NCBI GenBank assembly: GCA_964649085.1
Contig: CAZYPN010000002.1
Location: 158,991 to 222,990 of the forward strand
From: an uncultured Burkholderiales bacterium
Lineage (GTDB): Bacteria > Vulcanimicrobiota > Xenobia > Xenobiales > JADMJV01
DNA: 64,000 bases
Direction of reading: 5' to 3'
Below, in pieces: positions 8,306-39,107 of the stretch. Every line of letters begins with the position of its first letter. The first letter of the stretch is position 1. A program made the position numbers and the translations under genes. Under the pieces are notes generated by a model. It was given only the letters and a program-made list of their open reading frames with translations, ran no database searches and was not told the origin of the DNA.

Positions 8306-8338
8306 CTCAGAAGATTCGGATGCAACCGAGGCCTTCCT

Positions 8339-13012: not shown

Positions 13013-13020
13013 GGTGAAAC

Positions 13021-14816: not shown

Positions 14817-17800
14817 ATGAAGCACGCCGCACTCAAACAGTTGCTCCGCGTGATGGCTCGATTCAGCGCCATCACGCTGGGCCTGTCGATGGTTCTCCTG
14901 CTGGGGGCCTTCTTTCTGGCGTACTTTTTCAAAGACCAAATTTTACAGCACTACCGCCGGCAACTGGAAAAAAGTCTCAACGTCAACATCGCCATCCAAA
15001 GCTCCCAGCTGCGGGGCCTTCAGCTTCAACTTCGCGGAGTTCAGGCACAAACGCGAGGCGGGGCCCCGCTGGCCCGCATCGAGCGCCTGAAGGTCAACTT
15101 CCGCCCCTGGGCCGGCCTCACCCACGGAGCCGCTCGCTGGATCGACGCCTGTCAGTTGGAGCAACCTCAAATCGACCTGATTCTCGATGAGCAGGGTCGG
15201 CTGAACTGGGATTCCGTCACCCTGCCGACTCTCCCAGCACCCACCAGTCCCGAGCAAACGTTTCGGGGTGAGGTGCGTTTCGAGGGTGCCTCTCTCAGCC
15301 TGCGCGACCAACGCCAGGGCGGATTTCTGGCCCAACTCCCCCCGCTTCAGGGCCAGGTGGTGGTCAGGCCCGACCGACGCTGGACGGCCAGCGCCCAGGG
15401 GGCCCACCTGAAACTTCACGGCCAGGGCAGCCCGGGAGACCAGCAAATCCGACTTCAAATTGACGATCTGCCGCTGGAGGACTACCTGCAGCACCCTGAA
15501 CTGCGCGGCCTGATCCGGGCGGAGCAGGCTCTCGCCAGGGGCTCCCTGGAGGCCCGCTGGGGACCCGCAAAACCACCCCTGCTAAGTGGCAAAATCGGCC
15601 TGTCGGCCAGTTCTCTGGCCCTGCCCTCTTCCGGCCAAAGTCTGCAACAGGCCAGCGCCCAGCTTGCCTGGCTGGGCGGGAGCCTGTCGATCGAAAAGGC
15701 CCGGGCACTGTGGCAGGGCATGCCGATCCATATCGAGGGTGAAGTCAAAAGTGGCCAGCACGGTTGGGAGGACCCCTGGCTTGATCTGCGCCTGCGGGCA
15801 CCCCAAATTGCGCTGAAAAAGCTACAGCCCTGGCTCAAGGGAGTTCCGGTTGAACCCAGCGGAACGCTGGCCCTTGACATTCTGGCCGAGGGCCCCCTCT
15901 CTGAGCCCCAGGTCAGGGGGAGGCTGAAAGGTTGGAAACTGCTGCTCGGCGGCCAGCACCTGGCTGATGTTCTCAGCGACTTCGAGCTCGATGCCACCAG
16001 CCTGCACATTGAAAAACTGCTGGCCCATACCGGGCAGGGTGAGGAGTTCTCGGCCTCGGGCTGGATCTTTCGCGGTGGCGACCAGCGCATTTTCTTACGC
16101 CTTCAGGGCGGCCAAGCCGATTTGCGGGCCTTGCACCCCTGGCTGGGCCAGGGGCAGGATCTCGAGGTTACCGCGCTGGGATCGCTGCTCGATCCCATTT
16201 TAACAGGACACGGTCAACTGGCCGCTCTACCCCATAATCCCCTGGGCCTGACCGGGGCCGACGGAAACTTCTGGATCGACTCCGGCTCGGCCCTGGTCTG
16301 GAACTCGGCTCTGCAGGGCTCCGGAGGAGAAATTCAGGTACCCTGGGCGGTGCTCGATCTGACTCGAGGTCAACTGGCTGGGGCGGTCACCACCGAGCGG
16401 TTCAACCTGGCCACTCCGCAGGCCCTTCTGGAACTGCGAGGCGGAGGCCAGGGCGTGATCGACCTGAAAAACCAAAACTATAGCGGAACCGCCTGGCTGG
16501 AAGACAGCCGCATTCAGGCTGGCGGACTACCCTCCCTGAATGGCGTTCGCGGGTATCTGGCCTTTGAGCCCGGCGCGATGCTCGTGCCGCAACTCGAATT
16601 CCAGGCAGCGGGTGACCCGGTGGAGGTCACGGGCAGTTGGAACTCGGGGCAGGGCAATCTGTGGCTCCGTTCTCCCGGCATCAACCTCGCCCATTGGCTG
16701 AACCTCCCCGGAGCACAGGGGACCCAGCAACTCATGGCCTCGGCCCGAGTGCAGGCCGGGCAGATTGACGCCTTCCGCCTGTCCACTCGAGGCACGTTGG
16801 GGGATGCCTGGGCGGTGGGTCGCTGGCTTCCCGGGCAGGGTCCCGAACTCTACACCCAGTTCGCCAACCTGAGCCCGGGCAACGCCCCGCCGCTGGTGGG
16901 CGAGCTGGCCACCCGTTGGAATCAGGGACGGATGCAATACCTCTATCGGCTGGCGCCCGAACAGGGTGCCGACCAGACCTGGGCCTTCGGCCAGGGATGG
17001 TTGCAGGGAAATCAGCTGCACCTGGCCGAGAATTTCCTGCACCAGCCGTCGCTTGAACCCGTTGTTCAAGAGCATAAAGAGGGACGAGCCTATTCCTACT
17101 TTGGTCCGCTCGAGGGACCGCCCCTCATCACCGTCCACGATGGGGCCGTGCCGCGCAGCCAGGGAACGCTGAGCTGGAAGGGTCGCCTGGACCTGCGGCG
17201 CAAGCGCCTTCAGGTCGATGTTCAGGGACGACAACTGCGGGCCCATCAGTTAGCCGCCTGGTTCGGCCCCCTGGCCCAGCCGGCACCCGAGTGGTGGGTG
17301 GAACAGGGCGTACGACTCGAGGAAGCCGTCGTCGACGTGGATGCTCGGGGCGACGGTCCCCTGAACGGGCTGCAATGGTCGGCCTCGCTGCGCTCTCCCT
17401 GGACCCGCCTTTCGCGCAACCTGGGCGATGAACTGCGCTCCACCGCCTTCTCCTGGCGCACCGAGGCCGAGCTCCGAAGTGGCAGGCTGCGCCTGACCAA
17501 CCTGCTTTCACCCCGGCCTCAGGACTGGTCTCTGATGAGCTGGCGAGGTCCGCGTCGAGGCGGAACCCCCGAGGCCGATTGGCTGCGCTCGCGATTGGAA
17601 CTGGATTCCAAGTTGCAGCTCGCCGGCTGGGTGCGTGCCGAAGCCTTCCCCATGAGCACTGCCGGCTGGTTCACCCCCGGATGGGTCTCGGGCCAGTTGC
17701 CTTCGGGCAAGTTGAGCACCGGAACGGGGCAGGGGCTGCGGATCAGCGGTAGCCTTTCTCGTCCACTGCTCGACGGTCGCGTCGACCTGGTGGATGGCCG

Positions 17801-20567: not shown

Positions 20568-20576
20568 TAGGCCTGA

Positions 20577-20906
20577 ATGCCAGGGGCCACGGAGGAAGAG
20601 CAAGAAAGCTCTCGGGTGTTCATTGGAATCGCCCGATTTTCTATGTTCTTAACCAGTCAGCCCCACTCTCTGAAAGAGAAACGGGCCATTGTCAACAAAC
20701 TGAAAGACGCCGTGCGCAACCGACTCTCGATTTCGGTGGCCGAGGTAGATGCCCAGGACAAATGGCAGCGTGCCGTGCTGGGGGTGGCCTGCGTGACAGC
20801 CGAGCAGCAGTCGGCTCACCGGCTGCTCGAGGAAGCGGCGCGAGTGCTCAACAGCTATCCTGAAGTACAGGTGTTGGAGGAAGAACGCGATGTCGACGCC
20901 TGGTGA
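20577..20906 (+). CDS. DUF503 / YlxP-like protein
   Basis: 'IGIARFSMFLTSQPHSLKEKRAIVNKLKDAVRNRLSISVAEVDAQDKWQRAVLGVA' closely matches the YlxP pattern (HSLKEKR ... VSVAEVD.QD.WQR). Start may be GTG at 20616. Confidence 0.65.
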   Translation: MPGATEEEQESSRVFIGIARFSMFLTSQPHSLKEKRAIVNKLKDAVRNRLSISVAEVDAQDKWQRAVLGVACVTAEQQSAHRLLEEAARVLNSYPEVQVLEEERDVDAW

Positions 20907-21543
20907 CCTGAGCTGGCTGCGGGCCGCTCTATTTCATAGCCTCGACCACGGCGAACTGAAAGTGCCGGCCGGATCGGCCCAGATACCCTGGCTCGACTGG
21001 CTGGGCATCGCCTGGAAGCCCGCTGCCGAGGCCGACTCGCTGGATGTTCAGTCGCTGGACGTGCCCTTCACGGCTCAGGAGTTGCGCGACCGGGGCCTGC
21101 TGGGAGAGGTCGTCTATGGCGCTCTGGTGCAAACCCGCTGGCACCCTCATCAGCAGAGCTGGGTGGCCCGAACGCGTTCGGAAATCGCTGCCTGCTACAC
21201 ATCGGCCGAACTCGATTCGTGCCACTGGCCCCTCACGCTGGAGGTCTTGGACGAACTGAATGCCTATCGACTGCAGGAGCTGACCCCAGGGGAACTGCTG
21301 GAGTATTCCAGGCCCTTCTGGAAAGGCTGCCCCAACCCTCAGGATGAGGCGGTGATGGAAGGCTGGGTCTTGCTGCACTTCAACACCTTCGAGCGCCTCC
21401 AAGACGTCGCCGAATGTTTGCATCCCTTTTTCGAACCACAGCCGCGCCCACACTGGAAATTGCCTCCAGAGATGAGTTGGAACGACGTGGAGAGCATGCT
21501 CGGCGAGGAGAGACTGAACCGGCTGCTGGGGGTCAGGTCTTGA
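20890..21543 (+). CDS. Hypothetical protein
   Basis: 217-aa ORF with protein-like composition. Overlaps neighbours by 17 nt and 4 nt. No family recognised. Confidence 0.4.
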   Translation: MSTPGDLSWLRAALFHSLDHGELKVPAGSAQIPWLDWLGIAWKPAAEADSLDVQSLDVPFTAQELRDRGLLGEVVYGALVQTRWHPHQQSWVARTRSEIAACYTSAELDSCHWPLTLEVLDELNAYRLQELTPGELLEYSRPFWKGCPNPQDEAVMEGWVLLHFNTFERLQDVAECLHPFFEPQPRPHWKLPPEMSWNDVESMLGEERLNRLLGVRS

Positions 21544-22211
21544 AGTGGTTGGCGCTGGCAACCCTGCTGGCGCCCTGGCTGCTGGCCGTCCTGCTGCTGC
21601 CCGCCCGCCGTTGGGACTGGCCCGCAGCCTATCTGGCCGTGGCCCTTTTTCTTCTGGGCGCCATTCCCCAGGCCGCCTGGTTGGCCCGCCACAACCCCCT
21701 GCTGTTTTTTCGGCGGGGCAACGAGCAAAACAGCGACAACAAAGTTCCCCCGCCCGACCGTAAGCTGGTTCTGGCGCTGAAGTTGGCGGCGCTCTCTATC
21801 GCCGTGCTTGCCGCCCTTGACTCGGGGCCTTCGGCCCGCTGGCCGTCCCCCTGGCAAATGGCATCAGGACTGTTCCTGCTCGGAGCAGGCCTGACCCTGC
21901 TGACCGCCAGCCAACGAGCCAATCGATTTTTCGAAGCCTACGTTCGCCTGCAAAGTGAATTTGGGCACCGACCCATCGACCACGGGCCCTACGCCCGCCT
22001 GCGCCATCCCGGCTATCTGAGCTATCTGCTGATCTTTGCCTCGGGCCCGTGCCTGTTGGCCTCCAACTGGGCCTGGGGAGGGGTGGCGCTGTGCCTGGTT
22101 CTCTTCGTTCTTCGGATCGTTTTCGAAGAAGGTTTCTTACGCCAGCATCTGGAGGGATACGCCGAATATTGCAGGCGAGTTCGCTACCGGCTGATCCCCG
22201 GGCTCTGGTAA
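21540..22211 (+). CDS. Isoprenylcysteine carboxyl methyltransferase (ICMT)/phospholipid methyltransferase-family membrane protein
   Basis: C-terminal 'HGPYARLRHPGYLSYLLIFASG...RIVFEEGFLRQHLEGYAEYCRRVRYRLIP' matches the ICMT/PEMT signature. Start assigned to TTG at 21540 (TTGA overlap). Start uncertain. Confidence 0.55.
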   Translation: MKWLALATLLAPWLLAVLLLPARRWDWPAAYLAVALFLLGAIPQAAWLARHNPLLFFRRGNEQNSDNKVPPPDRKLVLALKLAALSIAVLAALDSGPSARWPSPWQMASGLFLLGAGLTLLTASQRANRFFEAYVRLQSEFGHRPIDHGPYARLRHPGYLSYLLIFASGPCLLASNWAWGGVALCLVLFVLRIVFEEGFLRQHLEGYAEYCRRVRYRLIPGLW

Positions 22212-22274
22212 AAGGGTTCGAGGACGATTAGATCGGTTCGAGCCGTGGTAAGATGCCTGCTTGAGGTAGGAACG

Positions 22275-23624
22275 ATGTTAGAGCAAAAGATTCAGGGCCG
22301 AAAGGCCAACATTACCATTATCGGACTGGGCTATGTGGGGCTTCCACTGGCGCTTGGTTTCGCCCGCAAAGGGTTCAAAGTTTTCGGGCTCGACGACGAT
22401 AGCCCGAAAATTGAGAAACTGCTGTCCGGACAGGACTACATCAACGGCCAGAACGAGGTTGTGCGCCAACTGGTCCAATCGGGCCACTTCCAGCCCACTC
22501 GCAACAGCGAGGTGATCTCTCAATCCGATGTGGTTGTCATCTGCGTTCCCACCCCACTTACCCGCAACCGCGAACCGGATATTTCCTATGTGGAACAGGT
22601 GAGTCGTCGCATCGGTCAGTTGATCCAGGTGGGCAGTCTGGTGGTGCTGGAGAGCACCACCTATCCTGGCACCACCGAAGAAGTGGTGTTACCCGCCATC
22701 CTGGCCGGCAATCGGGTGACTCGAGTCGGGCAAGACTTCCATCTGGCCTTCAGTCCCGAGCGCGTCGACCCGGGCAACCCCTCGTACGACTCCTACAACA
22801 CCACCAAAGTAGTCGGTGGCGTAACGCCGGCCTGCACTCATCTGACCACCTTGCTGTACCAGGCCCTGCTCGACCATCCCGATCTGGTGAAGGAAGCCTC
22901 TTCTTCACGCGCGGCCGAGATGGAAAAACTCTTTGAAAACATCTTCCGCAGCGTCAATATCGCACTGGTGAACGAACTGGCCCTGTTGTGTCGCGAGATG
23001 AACCTGGACGCCTGGGAGATTCTCGACCTGGCCAGTACCAAGCCTTTCGGATTCATGCGATTCAACCCGGGTCCGGGTATCGGTGGGCACTGCATTCCCC
23101 TGGATCCCTTCTACCTCACCTGGAAAGCCCGTGAATTCGATTTCCCCACTCGCTTCATCGAATTGGCCGGAGAACTCAACTCGCGCATGCCCTTCCACGT
23201 GGTCGACCTGGTGGCCGAAGGGCTGGGCTCGCGAGGCCTGGAGGACGCCCGGGTGTTGCTGCTGGGCATGGCCTACAAGAAAGATGTCGCCGACCACCGC
23301 GAGTCGCCATCGCTGAAGGTCTACGACTTGCTGCTGAAGCGGGGCGCACGAGTCGACTACTTTGACCCCCTCATCCCCCAGATCAAAACCGCCGACGGCA
23401 TGCTGCGCTCGGTGGCCGCAGGAAGCTTCCAGGACTATGACTGCCTGGTGTTGATGACCGACCACAGTCAGTTCGACCTCTCCAAGCTGGTGCGTGCCTG
23501 CAAGGTGTTCGTCGACACTCGTGGGGTTGTCCGAGAACTGAATCAGGACTTTGGCGACACCCGCGTGCTGGGGCTGGGCCTACCGGCCCGGCGCACCGGG
23601 CCGCGCCTGCAAGTGGTTCACTGA
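22275..23624 (+). CDS. Nucleotide-sugar dehydrogenase (UDP-N-acetyl-D-mannosamine / UDP-GlcNAc 6-dehydrogenase family)
   Basis: 'ITIIGLGYVGLPLALGFA' Rossmann motif, catalytic 'GGHCIPLDP', C-terminal UDPG_MGDP_dh domain. ATG at 22275 preceded by GAGGTAGGAAC. Confidence 0.85.
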   Translation: MLEQKIQGRKANITIIGLGYVGLPLALGFARKGFKVFGLDDDSPKIEKLLSGQDYINGQNEVVRQLVQSGHFQPTRNSEVISQSDVVVICVPTPLTRNREPDISYVEQVSRRIGQLIQVGSLVVLESTTYPGTTEEVVLPAILAGNRVTRVGQDFHLAFSPERVDPGNPSYDSYNTTKVVGGVTPACTHLTTLLYQALLDHPDLVKEASSSRAAEMEKLFENIFRSVNIALVNELALLCREMNLDAWEILDLASTKPFGFMRFNPGPGIGGHCIPLDPFYLTWKAREFDFPTRFIELAGELNSRMPFHVVDLVAEGLGSRGLEDARVLLLGMAYKKDVADHRESPSLKVYDLLLKRGARVDYFDPLIPQIKTADGMLRSVAAGSFQDYDCLVLMTDHSQFDLSKLVRACKVFVDTRGVVRELNQDFGDTRVLGLGLPARRTGPRLQVVH

Positions 23625-25066
23625 CCGGCCAGCCAACGCGCCCGGTGGCGGAAACACAGCGCCAGCAACCCCATGGCCACTACCCCCAGCACGGCGCTGC
23701 CGGCCCAGTGCCCGGCAGCGCAGGCCCCGCTGCCCCAAAGGACCCGATGGCTGGAAACGACTCCGCTGAGGCTCAATAAGGCCAGCAGATAAGAGAACAT
23801 GGGAACCACCACCATGGCTGCAGACAACCAGTTCCGTCCCAACAGCCACAGCGAGCAGAACACCGTGGCGTAGGTGTCGAGCAGCATCCAGCCCAGGCCC
23901 AGCAACACCAGCACCCAGATCGCGCCAAGAGCTGCCGAAGAAGGAGCCTTGAGGCTCAGCACCATCGTGCCTGGAGCGATCAGCAGCAACCCTTCCAACA
24001 GGCGGGGCTGAAGCCGAACCAGCGCCAGACCATCCACCAGTTGCGTCGGAGTGAAGGAGGTCAGGGTTAAGTCGCGATTTTTCGGACCCAATTCTTGTTG
24101 GATAAAGCTAAGCTGCGATCCCCCGGCGAGCAGCAGAAGAAAGAAGGCTGCGTAGCCAAGGAAGAGCGCACCCAGGAAAAAGTGCAGCTGGCCGGCCACC
24201 GCTCCGAGGATGCCCAGGGCCAGGCAACTCAGGAACCACACCGGCGTACCTCGCCATACCAGGCGACTGCGATGGTAGCGATACAGCAACGGATGTAGTT
24301 GGCCCAACTGCGACCAACGCGAAGAAGGTCGCTGCCGGCAACCCCCTCGCCCCAGCCAGCACCAGGGGCCGCCCGATCCTGCCAGAAGCGGCAGCGGTCC
24401 GCCCCCGCTCTGGAGCCAGCGCAGCGTGAAACGACGGCAGGTCACAGCGCAGGCCAACAGCATTCCCAGAGTGACGGGAATAAGACATCCCGTGGCCAGC
24501 ACGGGCGAAACCAGCGCAAGCAGCTGGAAAGCCAGGCCCATCGCGAACAACATGCCGTAGAAGCCCACCAGATACCCGATGATCAGTCGCATGCTCTGGC
24601 CACGACTGGCCAGTACCTGGGACGCCATTCCCAAATAGTTGCAGAAAAGCGCCAGGGGCAGGAAGGCCATCCACAGCACGGTAGCCCCCACGGCCAGGCA
24701 GGGCTTGCCGCCAAGGACCGCTACCAGGCACGCCGCCAGGACCCAGCGACAGCCCTGCCACCAGCGCAGGGCCAGGAAGGCCGAACCCGTGTCCACCAGG
24801 GCCGAGGGAGAGATGCCCGAAACCAGCAGCTCATCTACGTGCTCAGACACCGAACGCAGGCAGGCCGGAATCGCCGACAAGGCCAGCACCAGGGGGATGC
24901 CTGCCAGGCTCAGCAGTACGAGGACCAGCCCAAATAACAGATCCTCGGAACCGATGGCGCTGACCAGCGCCACCGCAAACAGGGCCCAACTCCAACGGCT
25001 CCAGCGGCGCAGGCGCCCCTGGTAGAGCAGAAATAACGGATTCTCTGGGGACAGCAGGTTGCGCAT
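23618..25066 (-). CDS. Polytopic integral membrane protein, unknown function
   Basis: Very hydrophobic, 12 or more predicted TM segments. Trimmed to the ATG at 25066 to avoid overlap with the FmdB gene. Confidence 0.4.
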   Translation of the reverse strand: MRNLLSPENPLFLLYQGRLRRWSRWSWALFAVALVSAIGSEDLLFGLVLVLLSLAGIPLVLALSAIPACLRSVSEHVDELLVSGISPSALVDTGSAFLALRWWQGCRWVLAACLVAVLGGKPCLAVGATVLWMAFLPLALFCNYLGMASQVLASRGQSMRLIIGYLVGFYGMLFAMGLAFQLLALVSPVLATGCLIPVTLGMLLACAVTCRRFTLRWLQSGGGPLPLLAGSGGPWCWLGRGGCRQRPSSRWSQLGQLHPLLYRYHRSRLVWRGTPVWFLSCLALGILGAVAGQLHFFLGALFLGYAAFFLLLLAGGSQLSFIQQELGPKNRDLTLTSFTPTQLVDGLALVRLQPRLLEGLLLIAPGTMVLSLKAPSSAALGAIWVLVLLGLGWMLLDTYATVFCSLWLLGRNWLSAAMVVVPMFSYLLALLSLSGVVSSHRVLWGSGACAAGHWAGSAVLGVVAMGLLALCFRHRARWLAGQ

Positions 25067-25083
25067 CCCCAGATTATAACACG

Positions 25084-25308
25084 TTAATTCATCGAGCAGA
25101 ATCCCTGGTCGACACAGCTGCCACAGCCCCCCGGGGGACAGCTCATGGGCATCTCCTCGCCCCCCGACTGGGGAGAACTGAAGGCAGAGAACAGCTTGCG
25201 CAGGTCGCTTTGCTGGCAATGAGGACACTCTACGGCGTCCTCAGAACGGCGAAGCAGTTTCTCGAAACGGTGATGACATTGGTTGCAGGCGTATTCGTAA
25301 ATCGGCAT
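25084..25308 (-). CDS. FmdB-family zinc-ribbon protein (putative regulatory protein)
   Basis: 'MPIYEYACNQCHHRFEKLLRRSEDAVECPHCQ' is the canonical FmdB CxxC...CxxC ribbon. Transcribed divergently from the giant coiled-coil gene. Confidence 0.7.
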   Translation of the reverse strand: MPIYEYACNQCHHRFEKLLRRSEDAVECPHCQQSDLRKLFSAFSSPQSGGEEMPMSCPPGGCGSCVDQGFCSMN

Positions 25309-25380
25309 GGGGTAGATTTCTAGATTTCGTTTGGGTTCCTTTTAACGGGAAAACCGCTCAGACTTTCGAAGGCAGCCCCA

Positions 25381-28300
25381 GTGTCCCATCAACAACCCAT
25401 TACGCTGCAAGAGCGGCTAGAGAATATCAAGCAACGAGCCAGCGCGGTACGGGGACAGATGGAGGGGCGTCCCACGCGGACCGATGAAACCCGCGAGGAC
25501 TGGGGAGCCGTCGGTGCCTCGCTGCAGGTGCGCCTGGAGCAGCTGAGCCAGCGGCTACAGGAACGAGACCGTCAACTGGCCGAGCTGCAGCAGCGCCTCA
25601 ACGAGTCCGACTCGGGCCAGGGTCTGCGCCGCAAACAGCTGGAGCAGCTGGCGCAACAGCTCAGCTCCAGCCTGGACGAGAAAAAGGTGCTGCAGGGCCA
25701 GCTTCACTCGGCCGAAAGTCAACGTCAACAGCTGGAACTGCAGCTGCAACTGGTTCGCGACCAGCTGCAGGAGCAGCAAAAATTGCTGGGGCAGAGTCAG
25801 GGGCGGGTGCATGACCTGCGCCAGGAATTGCTGCAGCAGCAACGCCGCGTGCGCGTGGTGGACCGGCTCCAGCTGCAGCTCGACGAAGCCGGTCTGAATC
25901 TCGACGATTTGCTTCATTCGCTGGCCCAACTGGAAGGCGACTCTCCGCTGTTGCAGGCGCTTCGTGACCAGATCGGCCAGCTGCAGGGCCAGCTCGAGGC
26001 CAGTCAGCAGCGAGAACAAAGGCTGCTGCAGCACCTGCAAGATTTGAAAGCCCGCCAACAAGACCTGGAGGCCGAGAAAAACCACCTGGGTTCCGATTTT
26101 GCCGAGCTACACCGCCAGCTGCTGGAAAATCAGCGCGAGCTTGGCCAGGCGCGCGGCGAGCTGAAACGCTGGATGGAGCTGCGCAGCGAGGTCGATCCTG
26201 AACTGCCGCGCGAGGTACAGCATCTGCGCGAGCGCAGCCAGAAGCTCGAAGCCAAGTTGCGTCAGGCCGTGCTGGCGCTGGGCGAGTCGCGCCAGGCCAC
26301 CGAGCAAGAACGAGAAGCGCGCGAACTGGCCGAGCAGCTCCTGGGGAAAAGCCAGCAGCGCCTGGTTCAGCTCGAGGTAGAACTGGACGAGCAGGTGTCG
26401 GCGCTGCAGAACTCGTGGGAAGACGTCAGCCGCCTCGAACAAGAGCTGGAACAAAGCCGCCACCACAATCGCAGTCTGCAACTGCAGGTGGGCTCCTCGG
26501 ACGAACTGCAACAACGCCTACTGCAAAGCGACCAGCAGGCACAGGAGCTACAGCAGAGGCTGGCCCACAGCGACCAGGAAACTCAACAGCTGCGCCAGCA
26601 GCTGCAAGAAAGCCGCCAGCAAGCTGCCAGCTCGGCCCAACAACTGGAAGAACTCGAGCAGCAGCGCAGCCAGCTTGAGCAGCGCCTCGAGCGGGCCCAG
26701 CTGGTGCTTCACGAGCTGCAAAACCGGGCAGCCGAGGGCCAGCAAGAGCAGGTCCTGCGCCAGCAGTGGGAAGAACGCGCCCTCAAGGCCCAGGCTCGCT
26801 TTCACCAGGCGGTCGAGCGTTTGCGTTCGCAAACCGAGCAGCTTCGCCAGCAGCAAGCCGACCTGGAAAACTGGCAATTGCGCTCCGAACAGGTCCAACA
26901 GAGCCTGGAAGACAGCCAGGAGCGCCAGGTTCAGCTGCGGCGACAGCTGGAACGCTGGCAAGAAATCAGTGGTGAGTGGCAGCGGGTTGCCGAGGTTGGC
27001 CAGGAGGGCACGGCCTTCCTTGAGCAGCGGCTGGCCGAGCATCAAGAGCAGCAACTTCAGGCTCAACAGCACAGCCAGGAGTTGCAGCAGGGGCTGATTC
27101 AGTACCAGCAAGATATCCTTCAACTCGGTCAGGCTCTGGCCGAGCTCGAAGAAAGCAACCGCAGCCTGGAAACAGAACTGGGCCTGACGCGCCAGGAGCG
27201 CGACCAGCTTCATCTGCGGGTCGAGCAGCTGGTGGAAGAGGGCCGGGCCCGTCAACACGGGTTTGAGCAACGCTGGGACAAACTCAAGACTCGCCTGGGT
27301 CAGGTCCAGTCGGACCTGGAATACAGCCAGCAACGCGGCCTGATGCTGCAGGACAAACTGCAGCAAGTCGTTGAGGTCGTCCGCGAAGAAAAGCACGCTC
27401 ATCAGCAAACCCGACAACAAAAGGACCAGCTTCAGGAAGCCCTGGCCCAACTGCAAGAGAGCGCTCGCCAGAAGGACTCGCTGCTCGAGCAGCAGAGACA
27501 AGAACTCGACACCCAATCCATGGCTCTGGAAGAGTCCTGGGAAGAGGCCCATCGCCTGGGGGAAGACCTTGAACGCGAGCGACAGTCCGCGGCTCAGCTT
27601 CGCCAGCAGTTGCAAGAGCTGCGAGCCCAGCAAGATAGTTTGCGGGAAGAGCGCGATGCTCTGCGCGAGCATTTTGAAGAACTGCTACAACAAACCGATC
27701 TCGAGCGAGAGGAGTCGGCCCGAGAACTACAGCGCCAGCTGGAACTCAATCACGAGCAAACCCGTGCGCTACAGCTTCGACTGAAAGAAGTTAGCGAAGA
27801 ACTGCTGTCGGTTCAGCAACGGTTGCAAAAAGCCCAACAAAAGCTCTTGCAGGCCGTAGACAGCCTGCGTCAAGAGCGCCTGCTGCGCCAGGAACTCTCC
27901 CAGCAGATCGATGAGCGCGACCTGATGCTGGAAGAACAGACGCAGCTGCTGGCTCAGCGTGCCGAAGAACTGGCCAGCGCCCAACACCGCTGGTCGTCCA
28001 CCGACCAGCAACGTCAGCAGCTGCAGGCCAACCACCTGACCACCGTGGCCGAACTGGAGGCCCTGCGCCAGGAGTACGAAACCCAGGTGCTGGCCCTGGA
28101 AGAGTCATGGGAGGAAGCCAGTCGCCTTCAAGAGTCGCTCGACAGCGAGCGCACTCGGGCCCAGGCTCTGGAGCAGCAATGGGCGCAGGCCCAACAGGCC
28201 CAGGTTCAACTGCTGTCACAGCTCGACCAGCTGCAGGCCGCCTATTCCGAACTGCAGAGTCGCCACAGCGGTGCGCTGGAGCAGCAACAGCAGGAGCAGC

Positions 28301-31300
28301 AAGCCCTGGAGCAGCTCCATCTCCAAACCACCACGCTTCAGGAGCATCTCAAGCACCGGGTGGACCAACTGCAGCAGCTGAAAGCCTTGCGCGATCAGAG
28401 CCAGCAGCGGGCCCTGGCCTTGGAAGAGAAGCTGCGCCAGGCGGTGGTTCGGCTGGCCGAGGAAAAGCAGGCCCGCCAACAGCTGGCCCAACAAAACGAC
28501 CAGCTGATCGCTCAGCTCGCTCAGCTGGAACAAGAGGCCCGTCAGTCGCAAAGCGATCTGGTGGCCGTGCGCCAGGAGTTGGAAACCCAGCTCATGGCCC
28601 TGGAGGAGTCCTGGGCCGAGAGCAGTGCGCTTCAGGCCGCATTGAACGAGGCACGGGCCGGAGCCGAACAAGAACGAAAAGCCCACGAAGAAGCCCGCGC
28701 ACGCGTCGAAATCTTGCAGAAAGCTCATCAGCACGAAGTTTCCCTGAGAGAAGAGCTGGAGCAGGAGCTGGAAGAACTGCTACAGCTTCAGCTGCAGCTT
28801 GAGGAAGAAAAACAATCTCATCGCCACACCGGCCAGAACCTCGAACAGGTCAGGCAACGCCTGCTGGCTGTGGAACAGGAACGTGACCAGAGCGAGCAAC
28901 GCAGCCAGGCCCTCGAGGCCAAGGTGCTGCAGCTGGCCGAGCTGCTCAAGCAGCATCAGCAGCTGCGCCAGGCCGAGAAGCTCAAGGCTCAGGATCGCCT
29001 GCAGAAGTTCAGCGATGAAGTCCGCCAGCTGCGCCAGCAGCTGAGCACCAGCGAGGAAGAGAGCGCTACCCAGCAGCTGGCCCTCCAGGAAGCCTGGTCG
29101 GAAATGTCTCAGCTGCAAGAACAGCTGGAAGCCGAGCAGCAGAAACTTCTACAACTGACCGAAGAACGGGGCCGCCTCCAGGTCGACATGGCCGAGCTGC
29201 TGGCCCACAGCCAGTTGGAGAGCCAGCGCTCGCAGCAGCAGATCGGGGAATTACGCACAGAAATCCAGGCCCTGCTGGGGCAACGCCACAAGCTGGTGGA
29301 CGAGCTCAACACGCGCGGTGGCCAGCTTAAGCAACTGGCCTCCAACCAGGGAGCCTTGCTCGACCAGGTCAAGCGACAACATCAGCAGATCGACACCTTG
29401 CGAGCCCAGATGGAGGCTCGCGAGGACGATGTGGCTGGCCTGCAGCGCCAGCTCGAAGAGGAAGAGCAGCAGCGGCGACATCTGCTGGACGAACTGGAGG
29501 TGGCCACTCAGGCCAGCGACCTGCTGCAGCAAGAGTTGGGCGAGCGCGAGAACGAACTGCAATCGCTGCACGAGCGGCTGACTCGACTCGACGCGGCCCT
29601 GAATCAGGCCCAACAACAGGTGTCTTTGCTGGAAAGCCAGCGCGAGGCCTCGCAGGCGCAACTGCAGCAGCTCAGTCACAACCACGCTGAACAGATGGAC
29701 GAGCTGACGCGTCAGCTGCAGCGGCGCGAGCAGGAACTGGAAACGCTGCGCCAGATCGAAGCCGGTGCCCAGCAGGCGCTGGCCCAGGCCCAAGAGGAGC
29801 TCAACCGCTCGCAACATCAACAGCAGACACAGCAGCAACAGCTTCAGCACCATCGCCAGGAACAAAGCCGTCTGCAAGAAACCGTAGAACGCCTGGGACA
29901 GCGCTTGAGCCAGGTGGGTGGGGCCTTCCAGCAAGCCAAACTGCAGCTGGCGGCCCGCACCCAGCAACTGCAACAGGTTCAGGACAGTCGCCAGCAACTT
30001 GAGGAAGAGCTGGTTCTGGCCCAGGCACACGGCCAGCGAGAAACGGTCCGCGCCGATGAACAGCTCGAGCGGGCCGATCTGCTAGAAGCCCGACTGGAGC
30101 AGCTGACCGCCCAACAGCAAGAGCTGCTCGTCCAGGTAGAGCAGCTGCATCAACAACGCGTACCGCGGGAAGAATGGCAGGCCCTGGAGCGGCAGGCACG
30201 GGCCGGCGACCAGGAAATTCAAGGCCTGAAGGCTCAGCTCACCGACCTGCAACTGGCCCTCCAGCAGTCGGAAGAGTGGCGAGAGTCGCAGCAGCGCGAG
30301 CGCGAGGCACTGGAGTCGCGCCTCGAACGCACCCGCCAGGAGCTGGTGCAGGCCGTCGAGATCCAACAGGGATTGAAGGAACGCCTGCTGAGCGTGGTGG
30401 AAAAATTTCGCCACAGCGAGGCCCTGCGCCAGCGCCAGCAAGAGGAGTTGGAGGGCCTTCAGGAAGAGCGCCGGAACTGGCAGCTGCTCGAGCAAGAGTT
30501 GCAAGGGCGCGTCGTTCAGCTAGAGCAGATGGCCCTGGAGGGGCACCAGCAGCTCTCGCAGGAGCGCCAACAGCACGAACAACAGCTGCTCGAACGCGAC
30601 CAGCTGCTGGAGAGCTTTCGCAACGAGCTCGAGCAGGCCCGCGACCAGGTCGATCAGCTGGCTCGTGAGCTGATCGAGGCCCAGGATCGGACCTTCCAGC
30701 TGCAACAGGAGCTGGAAGTCAACGAAGACGAGTCGCAACGCGATCGAACGCGACGCGAAGAACTCAACAGCCTGGTCGCCAGTCTCGAACAACAGCTGCG
30801 CCAGCTCGGCGAAGAATCGGCCAGCCGCCAGGAGCAGCTGGAGGACCAGCTGGTTCATCAGGAAGGTCAGCTGAAGTCGGGACAGCAGGCTCTGCTGCAG
30901 GCTCAGAGCCAGCTGCGTCTGCTGCAGACCGAGCGAGACAAGCTGGTGCGGGCCTATCAGCAAAGCCGTCAGGCCCTGATCGAACACCAGCAGCAAGCGG
31001 TGGAGCAGCAGCAAAAGTGGGAACAGGTTGCCAGTGAACTGCGGGTAACTCGAACCCAACTCGGCAAAACTCAGGAAGAGCTTCAGCTGGCCCATCTGCA
31101 GGTGGAAACCCTCGAGGGCGACCTGCAGCGCCTCGAGTCGCAGCGAGATGAACTCGCCCAGCGTTCCGACTCGCGTTTCCAGGAATATGAAAACGAACTG
31201 GCTCAGCTGACGGTAGAGCTTACTGAGAAGCGCCAGGAAGCCTATCGCCTGCGCAACAGCGGCGAAGGTCTGCGCCAGGAAAACCAGTCGCTCACGCGGC

Positions 31301-34300
31301 GACTGGAAGAAACCCTGCGGGAAAAGACCGAGCTGACCCAGCGACGCGAGTTTGAAACGCAACAGTTCAAAAGCGTGCTTGAGCAGCTGCTCGGTCAACG
31401 CCAGCTGCTGGAGAGCAAGCTCAAAGAAGTCGCGGCTCAGCGCAAAGAATTCCTGCTGGAACTGAAGCGCGAGCGCCAGCTCAGCAACCAGCAGCAACAG
31501 GACCTGACCCAGCTGCAAACCCGCTTTGACGAATCGCAGGCCCTGCTGCAGCAACAGCTGCAGCAGCTCGAGCAAGTACGTGGGTATTTCGACGAAGCTC
31601 GCCAGCAAGGCCAGCAGCTCCAGCAGCAGCTACAGCAAGAATTGGGGCGTTCCAGCCAGCTGGAAGAGCAGCTGCACCATCACCAAGAGGGCTGGCAACG
31701 CGACCGCGGCCAGCTGGAACAGGAACGGCAACAGCGGCAACGGCTCGAGGTTGAGGTCGAAGCTGGCCAACGTCAGCGCGGCCAACTGGAAAGCCAGCTG
31801 GACCAACAGCGTGCTCAAATCGAGGGCCTCGAAGTCGAGCTCACCAGGCTGCAGGCAGAGTCCCATCAAGATCAGCAGCGTCTGAAGCAGGAGGCCGAGC
31901 TTCTGCAGCGCCAGCTGGAGCAGCTGAGCAGCCAGCGCCAGGGCCTGATGGACAAGCTCAAAACCGTGGCCGGGGAAAGGGCCGACCTGAAGCAGGCGCT
32001 GCAGGCCCAGCAGGAAGAGCTGGCCGAAATCCAGCTGCGCCGTGAAGTGCTGGAACTGCGCCTCGTCCAGGTAGAGGGCGAACGCGACCTGCTGCAGTCG
32101 GAATCGGAGCAATACCGGCAGCGGGTCGACGAGCTGGAAGAGCGCCTGGAACGCAGCGCCTCCGACTTCCAACAGGCCCAGGAACAGCTCCAGTTGCTGT
32201 CGGAACTGCGCGCCCAGGGTGCGCGCCAGGAACAGCAGCTGCAGGCCCTGGAGTGGGGGCGGGAAGCAGACGGACAAAAGATCGGCGAACTGCAGCAACG
32301 GCTGGAACAGGTTGACCAGCAACGCCAGGCCCTGGAAGTGGAACTGGCCCAGGCACGTGGCCGCCTGGAAGAAGCCGCCGTTCGTCGTGAGGAGCTGCAG
32401 TCGGAGATCGAAGACGCGGCTCGTCAGCTGCAGGGCCTGCGTTTTGAAGCCTCCGAATTGCGCCAGTCCCAGCAGAAGTCCAAGGAGTCGCTGCTGCTCT
32501 CGCAGCAAAAGGTCGAACAGCTCGAGGCCGAGCTCGGTGAACTGCGCACCCAGCATCAACAGCTTCAGGAACAATCGGCTCGCAACGAGGAAGAGCTGCG
32601 GCTTCTGCTGCGCCAGAGCCAGCAAGAATCCGAAGAACATCGCCAACTGTCCGAGGAACTGCTGCAACAGACACGAGAGCAGTTGGAACAGAAGGAAGCC
32701 CACCTTCTGAAGCTGGTCGATACGCTGGGTCGCGCCAAGGACCGGATGCGCGACCAGAAGGCGCGCGTGGCCGAACTGGAAAGCGAGCTGGCACAGGTCC
32801 GTGAGCAGGCCCAGGAGCATTTTCAGAGACTGATTCGCGTGACCCGCGAACGAGAAGATCTGTCGGAACTGAAGCAGCGCGAATTGGGCGAGCTGCAGCG
32901 CCAGCTACAGGCCGCCAGCGCCGAACTGGAACAGCGCCAGCGCGAACTGCTGGCGCTGGAGGCGCAAAACCAGCTGCAGCAGCGCGAACTGGTCGAGCTG
33001 AGCCGGCAGGAAGTCGCTGCCGAAGAACAGCGCACTCTGCTGCAGTCGCAACTCTTTGAACTGGAACAACAGCTGCGCTCGGCAGCCGAAGACAAGCAGC
33101 AGCTGGAGCGAGAACGAGACAGCTGGCAAGACAGGCAAGAACAAACCCAAAACGAGCTGGAGCAGCTGTCCATTGAGCATCGCGAGGTGCTGGATTCGAG
33201 GCAACAGCTCCAGGCAGAGCTGGAGCGCCTCTCGGTCCAGCTGAGCCAGCTGGAAGAGCACTCGAGCAGCGATTTGCAGCAGCGAGAACAGCAGATTCAA
33301 AAGCTCGGCGAGGCCTATGCCAAAATCCGTCAGCGCTTCGTAGAAAACCAGCAGCAACTGGCCGAGGCCCAGGCCGAGCAGGCCGCGCTGCGGCAGCGAA
33401 ACGAGCAGATCGAGGCAGAGCTGGGCCAGGCTCATGAACGATTGGAGCAGTTGCAGAGCGAAGCTCGCCAGCTCGAGGCTCAGGTCCACGAGCGCCAACT
33501 TGAACTGCAAGATCAGCAGCAGCAGCTAGAGCAACAGCGCAACGAACTGACCCGCCTTGGCCAGGAGAGCGAGAAGCAACGTTTCGAGCTGCAGCGACTG
33601 GCCCCGCTGGAAGCCCAGAACCAGGCTCAACAACGCGAGCTCATGGCCCTGAGCCGACAGGAAGCCGAGCTGGAGGAGCAGCGACAGCGGCTGCAGTCGA
33701 ACCTGGAACAGCTGAACCTGCGCCAGCAGAAGCTCGAGGGTGAACTGGCCGAGAGCGAGCGACGCCATTCCAAACTACAGGCCGAGCACTTAAAGCTGCA
33801 GCAAAAGCAGGCCACGGCCGAGGCCCAACTCGAGAGTCAACAGCAGGAAGTCGAGCGACTGCAGACCGAGCACCGCCTGGCCCGGCGCGAGGTTGAAGAG
33901 CTTCAAGAGCAACTCCAGCAGCGCGAAGTATCGACCCAAAAGCTGGGCGAGGCTTATGCCAAAGTGCGCCAGAAGCTGGTAGAAACCCAGCAGCAACTGG
34001 CCGAAGCTCAGGCCGAGGCCGAGCAGCAACAACGCCGCGCCGACCGTCTTGAGGACGATCTGGGCGGGCTGAAAGAAGAGCTGCGACTGGCCACTTTCGA
34101 GCGCAGCGCCGCTGAAGAACGCTGGCGAGGCGCCAGTCAACAGGTGCAGCAGGCGGGCGAAGAGCGCGAACGTCTGTCGCAGCTCAACGAAGAACTCAAG
34201 TCGAATCTGCGCCACACCCAGCAACTGCAGCAACAGGGCGAAGCCGACCTGGTCGAACTGAAGTTGCAGCTGCAGCAGGAACAGGAGCGAGCCGGGCAGC

Positions 34301-37300
34301 TGCAGCAAAAATTGCAGCAGGCCATTGGACGCCTGCAGCACACCAAACAGGCACTGCAGCAACGTCAGGACGAGTTGCTGGCCGGCAAAGAGGAAAAACT
34401 CCAGCTGGAATCCGAGCTGGAACAGCGCCAGCAAGCCTATAGCGAGCTGGAGCAGCAGTTGCGCCAGGCCCAGCAGCGACTGGCGGAACTGGAACCCGAA
34501 GTTGAAGGGCAGCGCGGGTTGCGGCTCGAGCTTCACGGCCTGCGAAGCCAGCTCGACAGCCTGCAGCACCAGCTGCAGCGAGCCCAGCAGCGAGAACAAG
34601 CCCTGGAAAGCCGGCTGGAGCAGGCCCAGGTTCAAGAACAGGAGCTGACCGGCAAGCTGCAACGCAGCCAGGCCAAAGAGCGCGAGCTGGAGCATCAACT
34701 GCAACGCTCGCAACAGCGAGAGCGAGAGATCGATAGTCAGCTGCAACGGGCGGGCAGCCGCGAGCGCGACCTGGAACAACAGCTGCGAGCGGGTGTCGAG
34801 CAAGAAGAGCGTCTGCGGGCCCAGCTCACCCAGGCCTGGAGCGATCTCCAGCAATCCGAACTGCTCCAGCAGCGGCTGCAGGACGAATTGAGCCAGTCTC
34901 GCTCCCAGGGCTCGCGACGTGAGAAGCAGGTGGCCGGGCTGGAAGAGCAGCTGGCCGGCCTTCAGGAATCGCTCGAGCGGGCTCGGCTGGATGGCGAGAA
35001 GCAGCTGGAGCAACATCGCGAGCGCGAGAGCCAGCTGCTGGAACAGCTAGAAAAGCTGGGAGAAGCCCTCAAGCTGCACCGCAGCAAGGCCAACGAGGCC
35101 CTGGCCGGGCTGAAACAACGCAGCGAAGAGGTCAGCGGTGAGCTGCAACTCTCGCTCCAGGAGCGCCTGGAGCTGCGCACACGGCTCGACCAGCAGGAAC
35201 ATCTCCTGGAAGAGCTGCACCACGAAGTGGACACCCGGCGCCAGCGCGAGGCCCACCTCGAGCAGGCTCTGGCCGAGGCCCGGCGGCGCGGCGGCGAACT
35301 TCAGGCGCGAGCCGGCGAGCTGGCACAATCGCTGGACGAGAGCCAGAACTTCCGGCGGCTGTTGCAAGAAGAGCTGGCCCAACAGCGTGAGCAGAGCCAG
35401 CACGACCTGGACACCCTGAATGCTCGCCTGCATGAGGCCGAGTCACGCGGCCGCGACCTGGAGGAAACCCGTTCCTTACTGCTGGAACAAGAGCAGAAGG
35501 CCCACGAGTTGAGCCTGAAACTGCGCGAGTTCCAGCAAAGCGCCATCCTTCAAGAAACCGAGCTGCAGCAGCTTCGGCAATCGCTCAAGCACGAGGAAGG
35601 CAAGCTTCAACAGCAGCAAAAGGCCCAACTCCACCAGCAGGAAATGCACCAGCAAAGGGTGCTGCAACTGCAACAGGACCTGGCCGACTTGGAAGGGCGA
35701 CTCGAAGAAAGCGAGCGTAACAACCACAAGCGTGAGCAGATCATCGGCCAGCTCAAGCAGCGCCTCGGCCAGGCGATGCAAGACCTCAGCCAGCGCCAGA
35801 CCGAGCTCCATGAGTCGCAACTGAGCCTGGAGAGGGCAGGGCGCGAACTGGAACTGAGTCGCAGCGACGGCCTGGGCAAGGAAGCGCGCATCGCCGAACT
35901 CGAGCAAGACCTCGAGCAGCGCATCCAGCGTGCCAATTCTGCCCAGCAGGAAGTCGAGAAGCTCTGGCAGCGCCTGCAGCGCGAAGAAGAACAGCGAGCC
36001 CAGCTGGCCTCCGATCTGGAAAGGCACCAGCAAGAAGCCGACCGGTTGCAGCAGCAGCTGGATGAAGCCACGCTGGAAAAACGCCAGCTGTTGCTCGACC
36101 TCGACGACGCCGCCAATCAAAAACTGCAGCTGGCGCTGGAGCTCGATCGCTCACTGGAGCAAAAGACCGCGGAAATTCAGCGCTGGCAGAAGCTGCAGGA
36201 AGAACAGCAACGCCGCCAGGACGACCTGGAAGGTCGCCTATTACTGGCCCAACAGCGAATCGAGGTCCTGACCGGAGAGCTGGAAGAACGCGAAGCTCGC
36301 CTGCAGGCTGAACGCAAGTCGGCCCAGGACCGCCAGCAAGAGTTGCGGGGCCGACTGGAACGCCAGGTGCTGGAGGCGCAGGCCCAGCAGCTGGAGCGCG
36401 AGGCCCGAGTGCAGCAACTCGAGCGCGAACAGCGCAAACAAGCCGAAGAGCTGGAACGTCAGCTGCAGGAGTTGCAAACGCAGCGCTCGGCCCTCGAAGG
36501 CGAGCTGGCCAGCCTGAAGGCCCTGGGCCAGTCGAGCCAGGCCAGCTACCAGGCCCGAATCGAGCAGATGCAGCGCGAATACGAGGGTCTGCAACGCCAG
36601 CTCAGCGAGCAGGAAGAAGAGGTTCATCAGCAACGCCTGCGGGTCTCCCAGCTGGAGGCCGATCAGGTGCTGCTCAAGCAGGCACTGCACCAGTCGGAAA
36701 CCGCCGCTCAGCAGCAACTACAGCGTCTGGAACGCCTGCAACTGGAGCGCGAGGCTCTGGAACAGCAGTTGCGTCAGCAGGAAGAGCTGGCCCACAAACT
36801 GTCGCAGCGGGCCGAGGCCGCCGGGCAAGAAGGCGAAGAGCTGCAGCGACGTCTTGAAGACGAGCAGCTCTTGCGACAGAGCCAGTGGGACGACATGAAC
36901 ACGCGCCTGGTTGAGGCCGAACGCAGGCACGCCGAGAGCGAAAGGGCGCGCGAAGAGCTGAGCCATCGCCTCAATGACGGTCAGCTGAATTACGAGATGC
37001 AGCTGTCCGAGCTGCGCCGTCAGCTCGACCAGGCTCGACTGCGTCTGGAGCGCGAGGGCGAATTTGTGCAGGGCCTGCAGGAGCGCCTGAAAGAGTCGCA
37101 GGCAGCCCAAATCCGTTTACAACAGGAGCAAGGCGAGGGGCGCCAGCAGTTGCTCGAGGCCCAGGCCGAACTGGAGCGTGCCCAGCAGGCGATGGAACGC
37201 ACCCTGAGCGAGATGCAGCTGCAGGAACGCAAGGTGGAACTGAGTCGCGAGTCTCAGGAACAGCAAAGACAGCTGTTGTTGCAGCGGGAAAGCGAGTTGC

Positions 37301-38109: not shown

Positions 38110-39107
38110 GGCAGCTGCTGCTTCAGTCACCGATCTTTCTCGAGCACGACACCGGTCGTCACGTGGAGAACGCCGCAAGGCTGCAAGCCATTCAACAGCA
38201 GCTCGTAGGTCTGGAAGGCTGGCGGTCTGCCAGCCCCCGAGCGGCCAGCGACGACGAACTGTTGCTGGCTCATCAACCCTCCCACCTGCAACACCTGCTT
38301 CAGCTGCAAGCCGAGGGTGCGCGCTGCGTCGATGCCGACACCGTCCTTTCGGCACGCAGCCTGGAGGCAGCCCGTCTGGCCGCAGGTGGGGGGCTGCTGC
38401 TGGTGGACGAGGTGCTGAGTGGCGAGGCCGACCTGGGCTTCGCCCTGGTGCGCCCCCCGGGCCACCACGCCACGCCCGACCGCGCCATGGGCTTCTGCCT
38501 GTTTTCCAATGTGGCGCTGGCCGCCCTCTACGCCCGCCAACGTTGGAAGCTGGAGCGCATCTTCATCCTCGACTGGGATGTACACCACGGCAATGGCACC
38601 CAGGACTGCCTGCTGGAGCATCCCCAGGTCACCTTTTGTTCGCTGCACCAATGGCCGCTTTACCCGGGTTCGGGCTGGCACGACGAGCGCGGCCAGGGCA
38701 ATCTGTACAATCTGCCGATGCCGGCCGGCTGCGGCGACGCCGAGTACTTATTTGCGCTGGAAAAGCTGGTTGGACCCTTGCTGGACAAGGTCCAGCCTCA
38801 ACTGATCCTGCTTTCTGCCGGCTACGACGCCCACCAGCGCGACCCGCTGGGTTCGATGGAAGTCACCACCAACGGCTTTGCTGCCATGGCCTCCTGGCTG
38901 CGCCAGCGAGCGACGCAATTGCGGGCACCTTTATTGGGCTTTCTCGAGGGAGGCTACGACCTGCGCGGACTGTCCGAATCGGTAGCGGCTACGCTGCAGG
39001 CCTGGTCTCGGCCGGGCCCGCTCAGCCCGGTGGAGGCTCGGGCATTGAGCAGTGGGGTCCTGCAGAGGATCTACCAGGCTCAGGCAAGCTGGCAACTCGA
39101 GGGCTGA
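38106..39107 (+). CDS. Histone deacetylase-family enzyme (HDAC/AcuC/acetylpolyamine amidohydrolase class)
   Basis: 'LVRPPGHHA', 'GFCLFSNVALAA', 'ILDWDVHHGNGTQD', 'SAGYDAHQRDPLGSMEVT' are the HDAC-fold catalytic and Zn-binding blocks. GTG start overlaps the giant gene TGA (GTGA at 38106-38109). Confidence 0.85.
   Translation: MRQLLLQSPIFLEHDTGRHVENAARLQAIQQQLVGLEGWRSASPRAASDDELLLAHQPSHLQHLLQLQAEGARCVDADTVLSARSLEAARLAAGGGLLLVDEVLSGEADLGFALVRPPGHHATPDRAMGFCLFSNVALAALYARQRWKLERIFILDWDVHHGNGTQDCLLEHPQVTFCSLHQWPLYPGSGWHDERGQGNLYNLPMPAGCGDAEYLFALEKLVGPLLDKVQPQLILLSAGYDAHQRDPLGSMEVTTNGFAAMASWLRQRATQLRAPLLGFLEGGYDLRGLSESVAATLQAWSRPGPLSPVEARALSSGVLQRIYQAQASWQLEG

Follow-up and report, generated by a model that had tools for sequence, protein, structure and literature searches.

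Five diverged tryptophan-bearing modules in a 4242-residue coiled-coil protein of an uncultured bacterium

The giant gene and its five modules

The window analyzed here, a 64,000-nucleotide (nt) stretch of contig CAZYPN010000002.1 from an uncultured bacterium, carries a giant gene encoding a heptad coiled-coil protein of 4242 residues, and five diverged copies of a module marked by a conserved Trp are found at residues 283-1274 of this protein (Table 1). An earlier, sequence-only reading had located five such motifs in the N-terminal third of the gene. This location is correct: all five lie in frame in one open reading frame (ORF), each within 4 nt of where that reading had put it.

Table 1. 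Features of the giant gene and of its immediate neighbors (L-numbers are related loci described in the text).
Feature	Position (nt)	Strand	Residues	Trp and core motif	Evidence
Polytopic membrane protein, no Pfam family	23618-25066	-	482 in total		ORF; related loci
Zinc-ribbon protein (Zn_ribbon_8), divergent from the giant gene	25084-25308	-	74 in total		ORF; Pfam tags in L083-L088
Giant gene, heptad coiled-coil protein	25381-38109	+	4242 in total		ORF; translation
Module 1	26227-26523	+	283-381	Trp346 at 26416-26418; core ALQNSWEDVSRLEQELE at 26401-26451	Profile 92.9 bits; leave-one-out 21.8 bits
Module 2	27328-27645	+	650-755	Trp720 at 27538-27540; core at 27520-27573	Profile 122.4 bits; leave-one-out 69.5 bits
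Module 3	27814-28215	+	812-945	Trp910 at 28108-28110; core at 28090-28143	Profile 80.5 bits; leave-one-out 27.7 bits; alignment
Module 4	28402-28719	+	1008-1113	Trp1078 at 28612-28614; core at 28594-28647	Profile 117.4 bits; leave-one-out 73.9 bits
Module 5	28894-29202	+	1172-1274	Trp1239 at 29095-29097; core at 29077-29130	Profile 92.7 bits; leave-one-out 20.1 bits
Separate internal duplication	32929-33537 and 33580-34176 (32929-34176)	+	2517-2719 and 2734-2932		Dot plot
Pro-rich C-terminal linker and terminal peptide W[TS]LL[ED]...GGLELPGF(S)	37942-38106	+			Same ending in orthologous ORFs of L002 and L003
Histone-deacetylase-family gene, start overlapping the giant-gene stop	38106-39107	+			Pfam E = 3e-85

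The protein is composed mainly of Gln (20%), Leu (17%), Glu (16%) and Arg (11%), has a net charge of about -235 and does not contain a single Cys. There are 23 Pro residues, 14 of them within the last 60 residues and none between residues 277 and 1594. Heptad harmonics are strong at 3.5 and 2.33 residues across the whole protein, and a myosin-like 28-residue charge periodicity is absent. Both termini are short and non-globular. The maximal 19-residue Kyte-Doolittle hydropathy is 0.59, with no transmembrane or hydrophobic segment; a signal peptide and a membrane or wall anchor are absent as well, and the C-terminus (...GGGLELPGFS) has no hydrophobic tail. The protein is probably cytoplasmic. 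Fully extended, its calculated length would be about 630 nm. A Pfam scan of the whole protein gave no family (Spectrin checked at E <= 0.01). The description of the coiled coil as otherwise free of Trp does not hold, as 23 of the 28 Trp residues lie outside the five motifs, for example W871 and W934 near W910.

The controls used for the repeat tests preserve the extreme composition of the protein: shuffles, the reversed sequence, register-preserving shuffles and the rest of the protein itself. In ungapped 26-residue BLOSUM62 scans, the four best non-self matches of each copy are the other four copies (scores 50-84), against at most 45 for the best match elsewhere in the giant protein and at most 50 in shuffles. 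The pattern Q..AL...W is seen five times, when 0.08 occurrences are expected (2000 shuffles, with a maximum of two in a shuffle). On a window-sum dot plot, three module pairs exceed the reversed-sequence null: residues 629-761 with 987-1119 (45 of 80 identical) and, above the null maximum too, 689-769 with 879-959 and 888-930 with 1056-1098. Composition-adjusted blastp joins all five modules over 85-150 residues at E = 1e-5 to 1e-17, with everything else in the protein at E >= 0.002; modules 2 and 4 are 52% identical over 101 residues (E = 2e-17). Finally, profiles built without one copy recover the omitted copy at 20-74 bits. Elsewhere in the giant protein they reach 9.4 bits at most, and 7.0 bits in 101 control sequences (the reversed protein and 100 heptad-register-preserving shuffles). 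The five modules are thus real paralogous copies. Chance likeness arising from the Q/E/L/R bias, the objection raised beforehand, is ruled out by these controls, all of which are exceeded widely.

A 106-column module profile matches the giant protein at exactly five places. The same search found no degenerate sixth module in the 374-residue gap between modules 1 and 2, nor any further copy in the remaining ~3000 residues outside residues 283-1274. The recognizable core spans ~106 residues; for modules 2 and 4, the likeness extends to ~140 residues and then fades, leaving ~30-50 residues in each 161-190-residue period without detectable relatedness between modules. Module 3 holds an insertion of ~25 residues, which separates its two conserved blocks, and module 5 is the most diverged copy. 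From Trp to Trp, the spacings are 374, 190, 168 and 161 residues (1122, 570, 504 and 483 nt); the spacing of ~480-570 nt that had been proposed therefore describes the last three intervals and not the first. Similarly, growth by serial duplication, as suggested from the sequence alone, applies to residues 283-1274, with a period of 160-190 residues, but not to the remaining ~3000 residues, where copies are absent and other, unrelated duplications occur.

The anatomy of the module was derived from an alignment of 12 copies from five lineages, five from the window protein and seven from homologues. Block A has the consensus 'R...LE.KLRQAV..LR' and is followed, 35-60 residues further, by block B, 'L..LR.E..[TE]Q..ALE.SW.E.s.L...LE.ER'. 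The segment following each motif is indeed shared, as had been noted ('W.E.s.L...LE.ER'). All 12 copies have Q(-8), A(-5), L(-4) and L(+10), with positions counted from the Trp. The Trp itself, announced as invariant, is kept in 11 of the 12 across the five lineages and replaced by Cys in one. It is preceded by Ser(-1) in ten copies and by Ala in the others. Several charged positions are conserved as well, among them R652, K659, E708 and R734. Mean column conservation is highest at heptad position d (0.65), followed by a (0.54), g (0.52), e (0.50), b (0.45), c (0.40) and f (0.38).

The conserved Leu residues at positions 702, 705, 716, 726, 730, 740, 747 and 754 are separated by steps of 3, 11, 10, 4, 10, 7 and 7. 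This spacing fits a single continuous heptad frame, and register tracing found no discontinuity at residues 618-769 or 769-1111. Placed in this frame, the motif is Q(d)-x-x-A(g)-L(a)-x-x-S(d)-W(e)-x-x-h(a)-x-x-L(d)-x-x-x-L(a), the Trp being at a+4, position e. AlphaFold2 modeling of residues 600-960 gave two helices that run without interruption, 604-794 and 805-959, and no loop within any module covered; a Foldseek search returned nothing comparable. The heptad frame passes through the motif unbroken, so that the coiled coil is not broken there. The heptads stay regular, and Gln and Ser in two successive d positions make their core locally polar or small, with Ala at g and Trp at e on its flanks. 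The idea of a register-defining break thus fails as a break; the weaker idea of a register element survives, with an invariant Gln and a Ser/Ala in successive d positions beside the Trp at e.

Selection, relatives and evolution of the family

Orthologous loci were fetched with the upstream 482-residue membrane protein as the query. Seven independent contigs, L082-L088, from JGI, Logan and ENA samples, carry a collinear giant gene, and independent gene callers also give it 4242 residues in L083 and L086. Over 9686 nt, the contigs of two groups show no indel relative to the window, from which they differ at ~0.9% and 9-10% of nucleotides. The alignment of window positions 25381-35066 with positions 1-9686 (minus strand) of L082/L083, the 9-10% group, covers 3228 codons. 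Here, the rate of synonymous substitution (dS) is 0.37-0.42 and the ratio of non-synonymous to synonymous rates (dN/dS) is 0.07 for the giant gene. For the same pair of genomes, dN/dS is 0.06 for TamB, 0.02 for UDP-glucose dehydrogenase and 0.24 for the adjacent membrane protein, which evolves much faster than its neighbors. The giant gene is real and under purifying selection. The seven contigs with a collinear gene and a dN/dS of 0.07 in frame rule out an artefact of assembly, or a shadow ORF that does not code for protein. Exact conservation of length at a dS of ~0.4 is unusual for a repetitive fibrous protein.

Two contigs depart from this picture. In L084, the giant gene is split into 2777 and 1439 residues by a frameshift. 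L089 (positions 1-1417), an ENA contig of low coverage, shows a 98.9% match to the window as far as the equivalent of nt 27037, inside the giant gene, and continues with unrelated DctP-type genes; it is probably a chimeric assembly, a real rearrangement being the alternative.

More distant homologues come from searching 1.84 billion representative proteins exhaustively with a profile, which returned at least four matches; the window's own protein was not returned, although the Logan contigs L083 and L086 carry it. P0001 (1199 residues) is the N-terminal piece of an orthologue, a 4208-residue ORF beginning 3 nt downstream on its contig (ERZ22666135, 25 kb). It is 34% identical to, and collinear with, the N-terminal part of the window protein, and its modules start at residues 284, 651, 811 and 940, compared to 283, 650, 812 and 1008 in the window protein. 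In these four modules, the position of the Trp is taken by Trp, Cys, Trp and Trp, in that order. The other three matches, P0002-P0004, are short pieces of proteins from further lineages, each with one Trp-bearing module. The duplications are therefore ancient and predate the splits between these lineages, including that from the 34%-identical one.

Module 1 behaves as a simple orthologue, with positional counterparts in P0001 (residues 284-382, 40% identity) and P0003 (61%). Modules 2-4 were compared over window positions 27328-28719 and P0001 residues 647-1033: module pairs of the window protein are 39-50% identical and those of P0001 44-49%, whereas positional orthologues of the two proteins reach only 27-35%. 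This suggests concerted evolution (gene conversion) or parallel re-duplication within the lineages.

Profile scans of genome and metagenome contigs with module alignments yielded no relative, a negative that is unreliable, since the JGI-sourced L082 and L084, carrying the identical motif, were not returned either. Either the tblastn confirmation step is blind to low-complexity sequence or these samples lie outside the scanned collection. A word-based homologue search with residues 636-1300 or 3484-4242 also gave nothing, coiled-coil words saturating its filter of 8000 candidates, and exact look-ups of the giant protein and of UDP-glucose dehydrogenase gave no match.

At the other end of the protein, the terminal peptide W[TS]LL[ED]...GGLELPGF recurs after a Pro-rich linker in two more distant loci, at ~8500-8640 of L002 and ~8480-8618 of L003. 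This peptide may act as a short linear interaction motif, with a shape, 'L-[DE]-[IL]-P-x-F', perhaps reminiscent of the FtsZ C-terminal peptide. In L002 and L003, a giant coiled-coil ORF lies upstream of the deacetylase gene and runs off the locus; its last ~750 residues share 43% identity with the window protein. The fetched loci cover the C-terminal part of this ORF, and the N-terminal module region lies outside them, upstream of L002 within positions 1-14318 of JAFKGI010000061.1 and upstream of L003 within positions 16850-28455 of JAFEBA010000101.1.

With modules present in P0001-P0004 and L082-L088, these proteins form a new family of Vulcanimicrobiota/Eremiobacterota-like bacteria, recognizable by collinear N-terminal Q..AL..SW modules and/or the C-terminal ...GGLELPGF peptide.

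Other segments of these proteins have been duplicated too. Between residues 2517-2719 and 2734-2932 of the window protein, dot-plot peaks of 28/40 and 26/40 identical residues, at offsets of 213-217, stand above the reversed-sequence null; an example is QKLGEAYAK[IV]RQ at residues 2640 and 2853. This duplication is unrelated to the Trp modules and private to the window protein. A different module, 'QR.EQ...QLK.RL', occurs four times in the L002 ORF (residues 1377, 1625, 1842 and 2032), three times in that of L003 (1454, 1706 and 1951) and once in the window protein (residue 3450, nt 35728-35766), so that its amplification is lineage-specific. Given this amplification and the private duplication in the window protein, segmental duplication is a general mode of change in the family. 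A run of a short, ~14-residue unit, 'QRSQ.RERE[LI][ED].QLQR', can be seen at nt 34561-34794 (residues 3061-3138), as well as in the L002 and L003 orthologues.

Genomic neighborhood and host lineage

The zinc-ribbon gene adjoins the giant gene in every related contig showing the junction, and both this gene and that of the membrane protein are found upstream, in divergent orientation, in all close relatives. A motif like 'E(L/D)L..S(I/F)(S/T)P..LVDG' recurs in two internal halves of the membrane protein. On the downstream side, the best genome matches of the deacetylase are metagenome-assembled genomes (MAGs) at 57-60% identity, including L002, labeled Vulcanimicrobiota, and L003 (EREM-KAN-1). 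In these two, a gene of ~455 codons, encoding a putative membrane transporter, is inserted between the giant gene and the deacetylase gene; none of the other genes flanking this pair in L002/L003 was found in the window. The closest relatives of this locus are thus Vulcanimicrobiota/Eremiobacterota MAGs, and, judging by these matches, the host is probably a member of the Eremiobacterota.

The rest of the window is ordinary chromosome, with genes for FlhA, type IV pili, isocitrate dehydrogenase and TamB, and with rpsB and tsf at 47887-49491. The window had no match in a plasmid collection, and Rfam and tRNA scans of it found nothing. FlhA lies near genes for PilB-like, PilM, DUF7305, PilC-like and Hpt-domain proteins (1-1593, 5667-11745 and 12242-13012). 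V. alpinus, the only cultured member of the Eremiobacterota, has been reported to be without flagella (PMC9758169). The motility of the window's lineage may differ from that of V. alpinus.

Possible role of the modules

Giant bacterial genes mostly encode surface adhesins or non-ribosomal peptide synthetase and polyketide synthase enzymes. To our knowledge, bacterial proteins of more than 4000 residues that are pure coiled coils and probably cytoplasmic have not been described, and no such giant protein was found in the literature on Eremiobacterota, coiled coils and Vulcanimicrobium. Structurally, the protein is of a familiar kind, its sequence family is new, and its function, discussed below, is inferred. 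Crescentin, FilP and Scy of Streptomyces, the coiled-coil-rich proteins (CCRPs) of cyanobacteria and Helicobacter, and HMW2 of Mycoplasma appear to share with it a long, almost purely alpha-helical and probably cytoplasmic heptad rod devoid of enzymatic domain, signal peptide and transmembrane segment, which is what characterizes intermediate filament (IF)-like proteins and CCRPs. Some CCRP-type proteins also have internal sequence repeats. However, the giant protein is two to three times longer than these proteins (Scy, ~1326 residues; HMW2, ~1818 residues), and it has no sequence relationship with the IF rod (PF00038), crescentin, FilP or Scy and no Pfam Filament match; its Q..AL..SW module is not known from CCRP-type proteins. 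A profile search of PDB sequences gave only generic, keratin-type coiled-coil noise (E = 0.2-0.45).

Serially duplicated blocks in a long helical rod, where they define repeated sites of interaction, are also found in tropomyosin, nebulin and the A/B/C repeats of streptococcal M proteins. Their periods are ~40 residues, ~35 residues and variable, respectively, compared to 161-190 residues here, and their ligands are known. M proteins are secreted and anchored to the wall, whereas the giant protein has no LPXTG signal; a surface fibrillar protein of the M-protein type was rejected, as signal peptide and C-terminal anchor are both missing and hydropathy stays low throughout. An ATPase of the SMC/Rad50/MukB type was rejected likewise: no SMC_N, AAA or hinge family is found in the 4242 residues, and the termini are not globular.

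Closer to the motif itself are Asn16 of GCN4 and the cortexillin/GCN4 trigger site, which are also short conserved elements in regular heptads with polar core residues; in the giant protein, the element is repeated five times, with a Trp at e. Pfam Cortex-I_coil gave weak matches in two modules (best E = 0.0041), below the curated cut-off. The trigger-site consensus is xxLExchxcxccx, and 'ALEESWEEAxRL' presumably fits it loosely, an easy chance match in a sequence rich in E, R and L.

The reading favored here, at about even odds (a probability of roughly 0.5), is that the modules are helix-helix packing elements that fix register or accept a further helix, rather than a break or an outward-facing epitope. 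This reading is suggested by the conserved columns, which lie mostly at a, d, e and g. In coiled coils, a polar residue buried at a or d (Asn16 of GCN4 is an example) determines register and oligomer state, and a hydrophobic residue at e or g widens the interface and favors assemblies of more than two strands. Hence, a core with Gln and Ser at d, together with Ala at g and Trp at e, would point to a specific packing site. Within the unbroken frame, the succession of an invariant polar Gln (d), Ala (g), Leu (a), Ser or Ala (next d) and Trp (e) would form a locally weakened and widened g-a-d-e seam. Such a seam could fix the pairing register, let a further helix pack, or both; the further helix might belong either to another rod, the rods then bundling laterally or in higher order, or to a partner that is helical. 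Sites of this kind would recur every ~24-28 nm along the rod.

Several observations weigh against this reading. The heptad assignment comes from a simple scoring of our own, corroborated only by the Leu spacing, and the AlphaFold2 model is that of a monomer computed from a three-row alignment (mean predicted local distance difference test score, 77; predicted template modeling score, 0.23). The 27-residue Trp cores have a dN/dS of 0.024-0.029, below the average for the gene, compared to 0.033-0.041 for the non-module sequence of the N-terminal 1300 residues: at ~6% amino acid divergence, they show no extra constraint relative to their neighbors, such constraint being seen only in the deep comparison. 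In P0001, the positional orthologue of module 2 is the one with Cys in place of Trp, and no counterpart of module 5 is recognizable. The Trp spacings also differ, 374/190/168/161 residues in the window protein vs. 358/162/129 in P0001, a lineage-variable pattern that argues against a strict ruler.

Some of these points would suit duplication remnants, in which the modules have no role of their own, the Trp is an inherited passenger and the whole rod is uniformly constrained. The dN/dS of the cores at short divergence, the Trp-to-Cys change and the lost or unrecognizable module 5 are all expected of such remnants, as is the lineage-specific duplication of other segments of the family. The motif columns, however, remain invariant at 34% overall identity, the polar-d and Trp-e arrangement persists in 11 of the 12 copies, which is unexpected from drift, and the motif has stayed intact through the within-genome homogenization of modules 2-4; modules without function are, therefore, a doubtful explanation, although one to be reckoned with. 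Neither is it likely that the modules are periodic docking sites on an outward-facing surface, binding one copy of a partner per 24-28 nm, much as tropomyosin or nebulin would. The recurrence of the copies at 161-190 residues, their conserved charged positions and their collinearity in P0001 speak for docking, but the outward b, c and f columns are the least conserved, the spacing changes between lineages, and no conserved candidate partner gene is found beyond those of the zinc-ribbon protein, the membrane protein and the deacetylase. A partner-binding site, the other function that had been proposed for the Trp, is for the same reason of conservation less favored.

The ~106-residue helical unit with a highly conserved Trp also resembles the spectrin repeat (PF00435) and the repeats of EzrA, and the 'W-E-E-L'-type context presumably does so too. 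Three-helix bundles stabilized by the Trp are nevertheless very improbable. The period of the modules is 161-190 residues and not 106, the Spectrin profile does not match any of the five modules even at E <= 10, and neither curated Pfam families, PDB sequences nor Foldseek offered a relative. The predicted topology is a continuous single helix, with AlphaFold2 helices of 155-190 residues in a region devoid of Pro and with an unbroken heptad frame; a spectrin-like fold was thus rejected on profile, predicted topology and period. As for chance similarity, an assembly artefact or a shadow ORF, the extreme composition and the many long shadow ORFs on the opposite strand of the gene would invite such an explanation, yet the composition-preserving controls, the independent contigs and the in-frame dN/dS leave it a practically negligible probability.

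A bolder and quite unlikely proposal is that the protein is the founding member of an undescribed bacterial cytoskeletal or tethering system: a rod of ~0.6 micrometers, on the scale of a cell's length, whose length would be selected, whose Trp modules would serve as periodic assembly or docking nodes, and whose C-terminal W.LL...GGLELPGF peptide would recruit it to another machine. Selection on length would be suggested, in such a system, by the absence of indels in 3228 codons at a dS of ~0.4.

If the modules are only relics of duplication, this is an ordinary case of repeat growth in a fibrous protein. The giant protein is, in any case, conserved as tightly as TamB and keeps its exact length between strains, in a lineage, Eremiobacterota/WPS-2, with an almost unknown cell biology. 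For this 630-nm coiled coil of low complexity, the Q..AL..SW modules provide concrete, mutable handles on register pairing or bundling.

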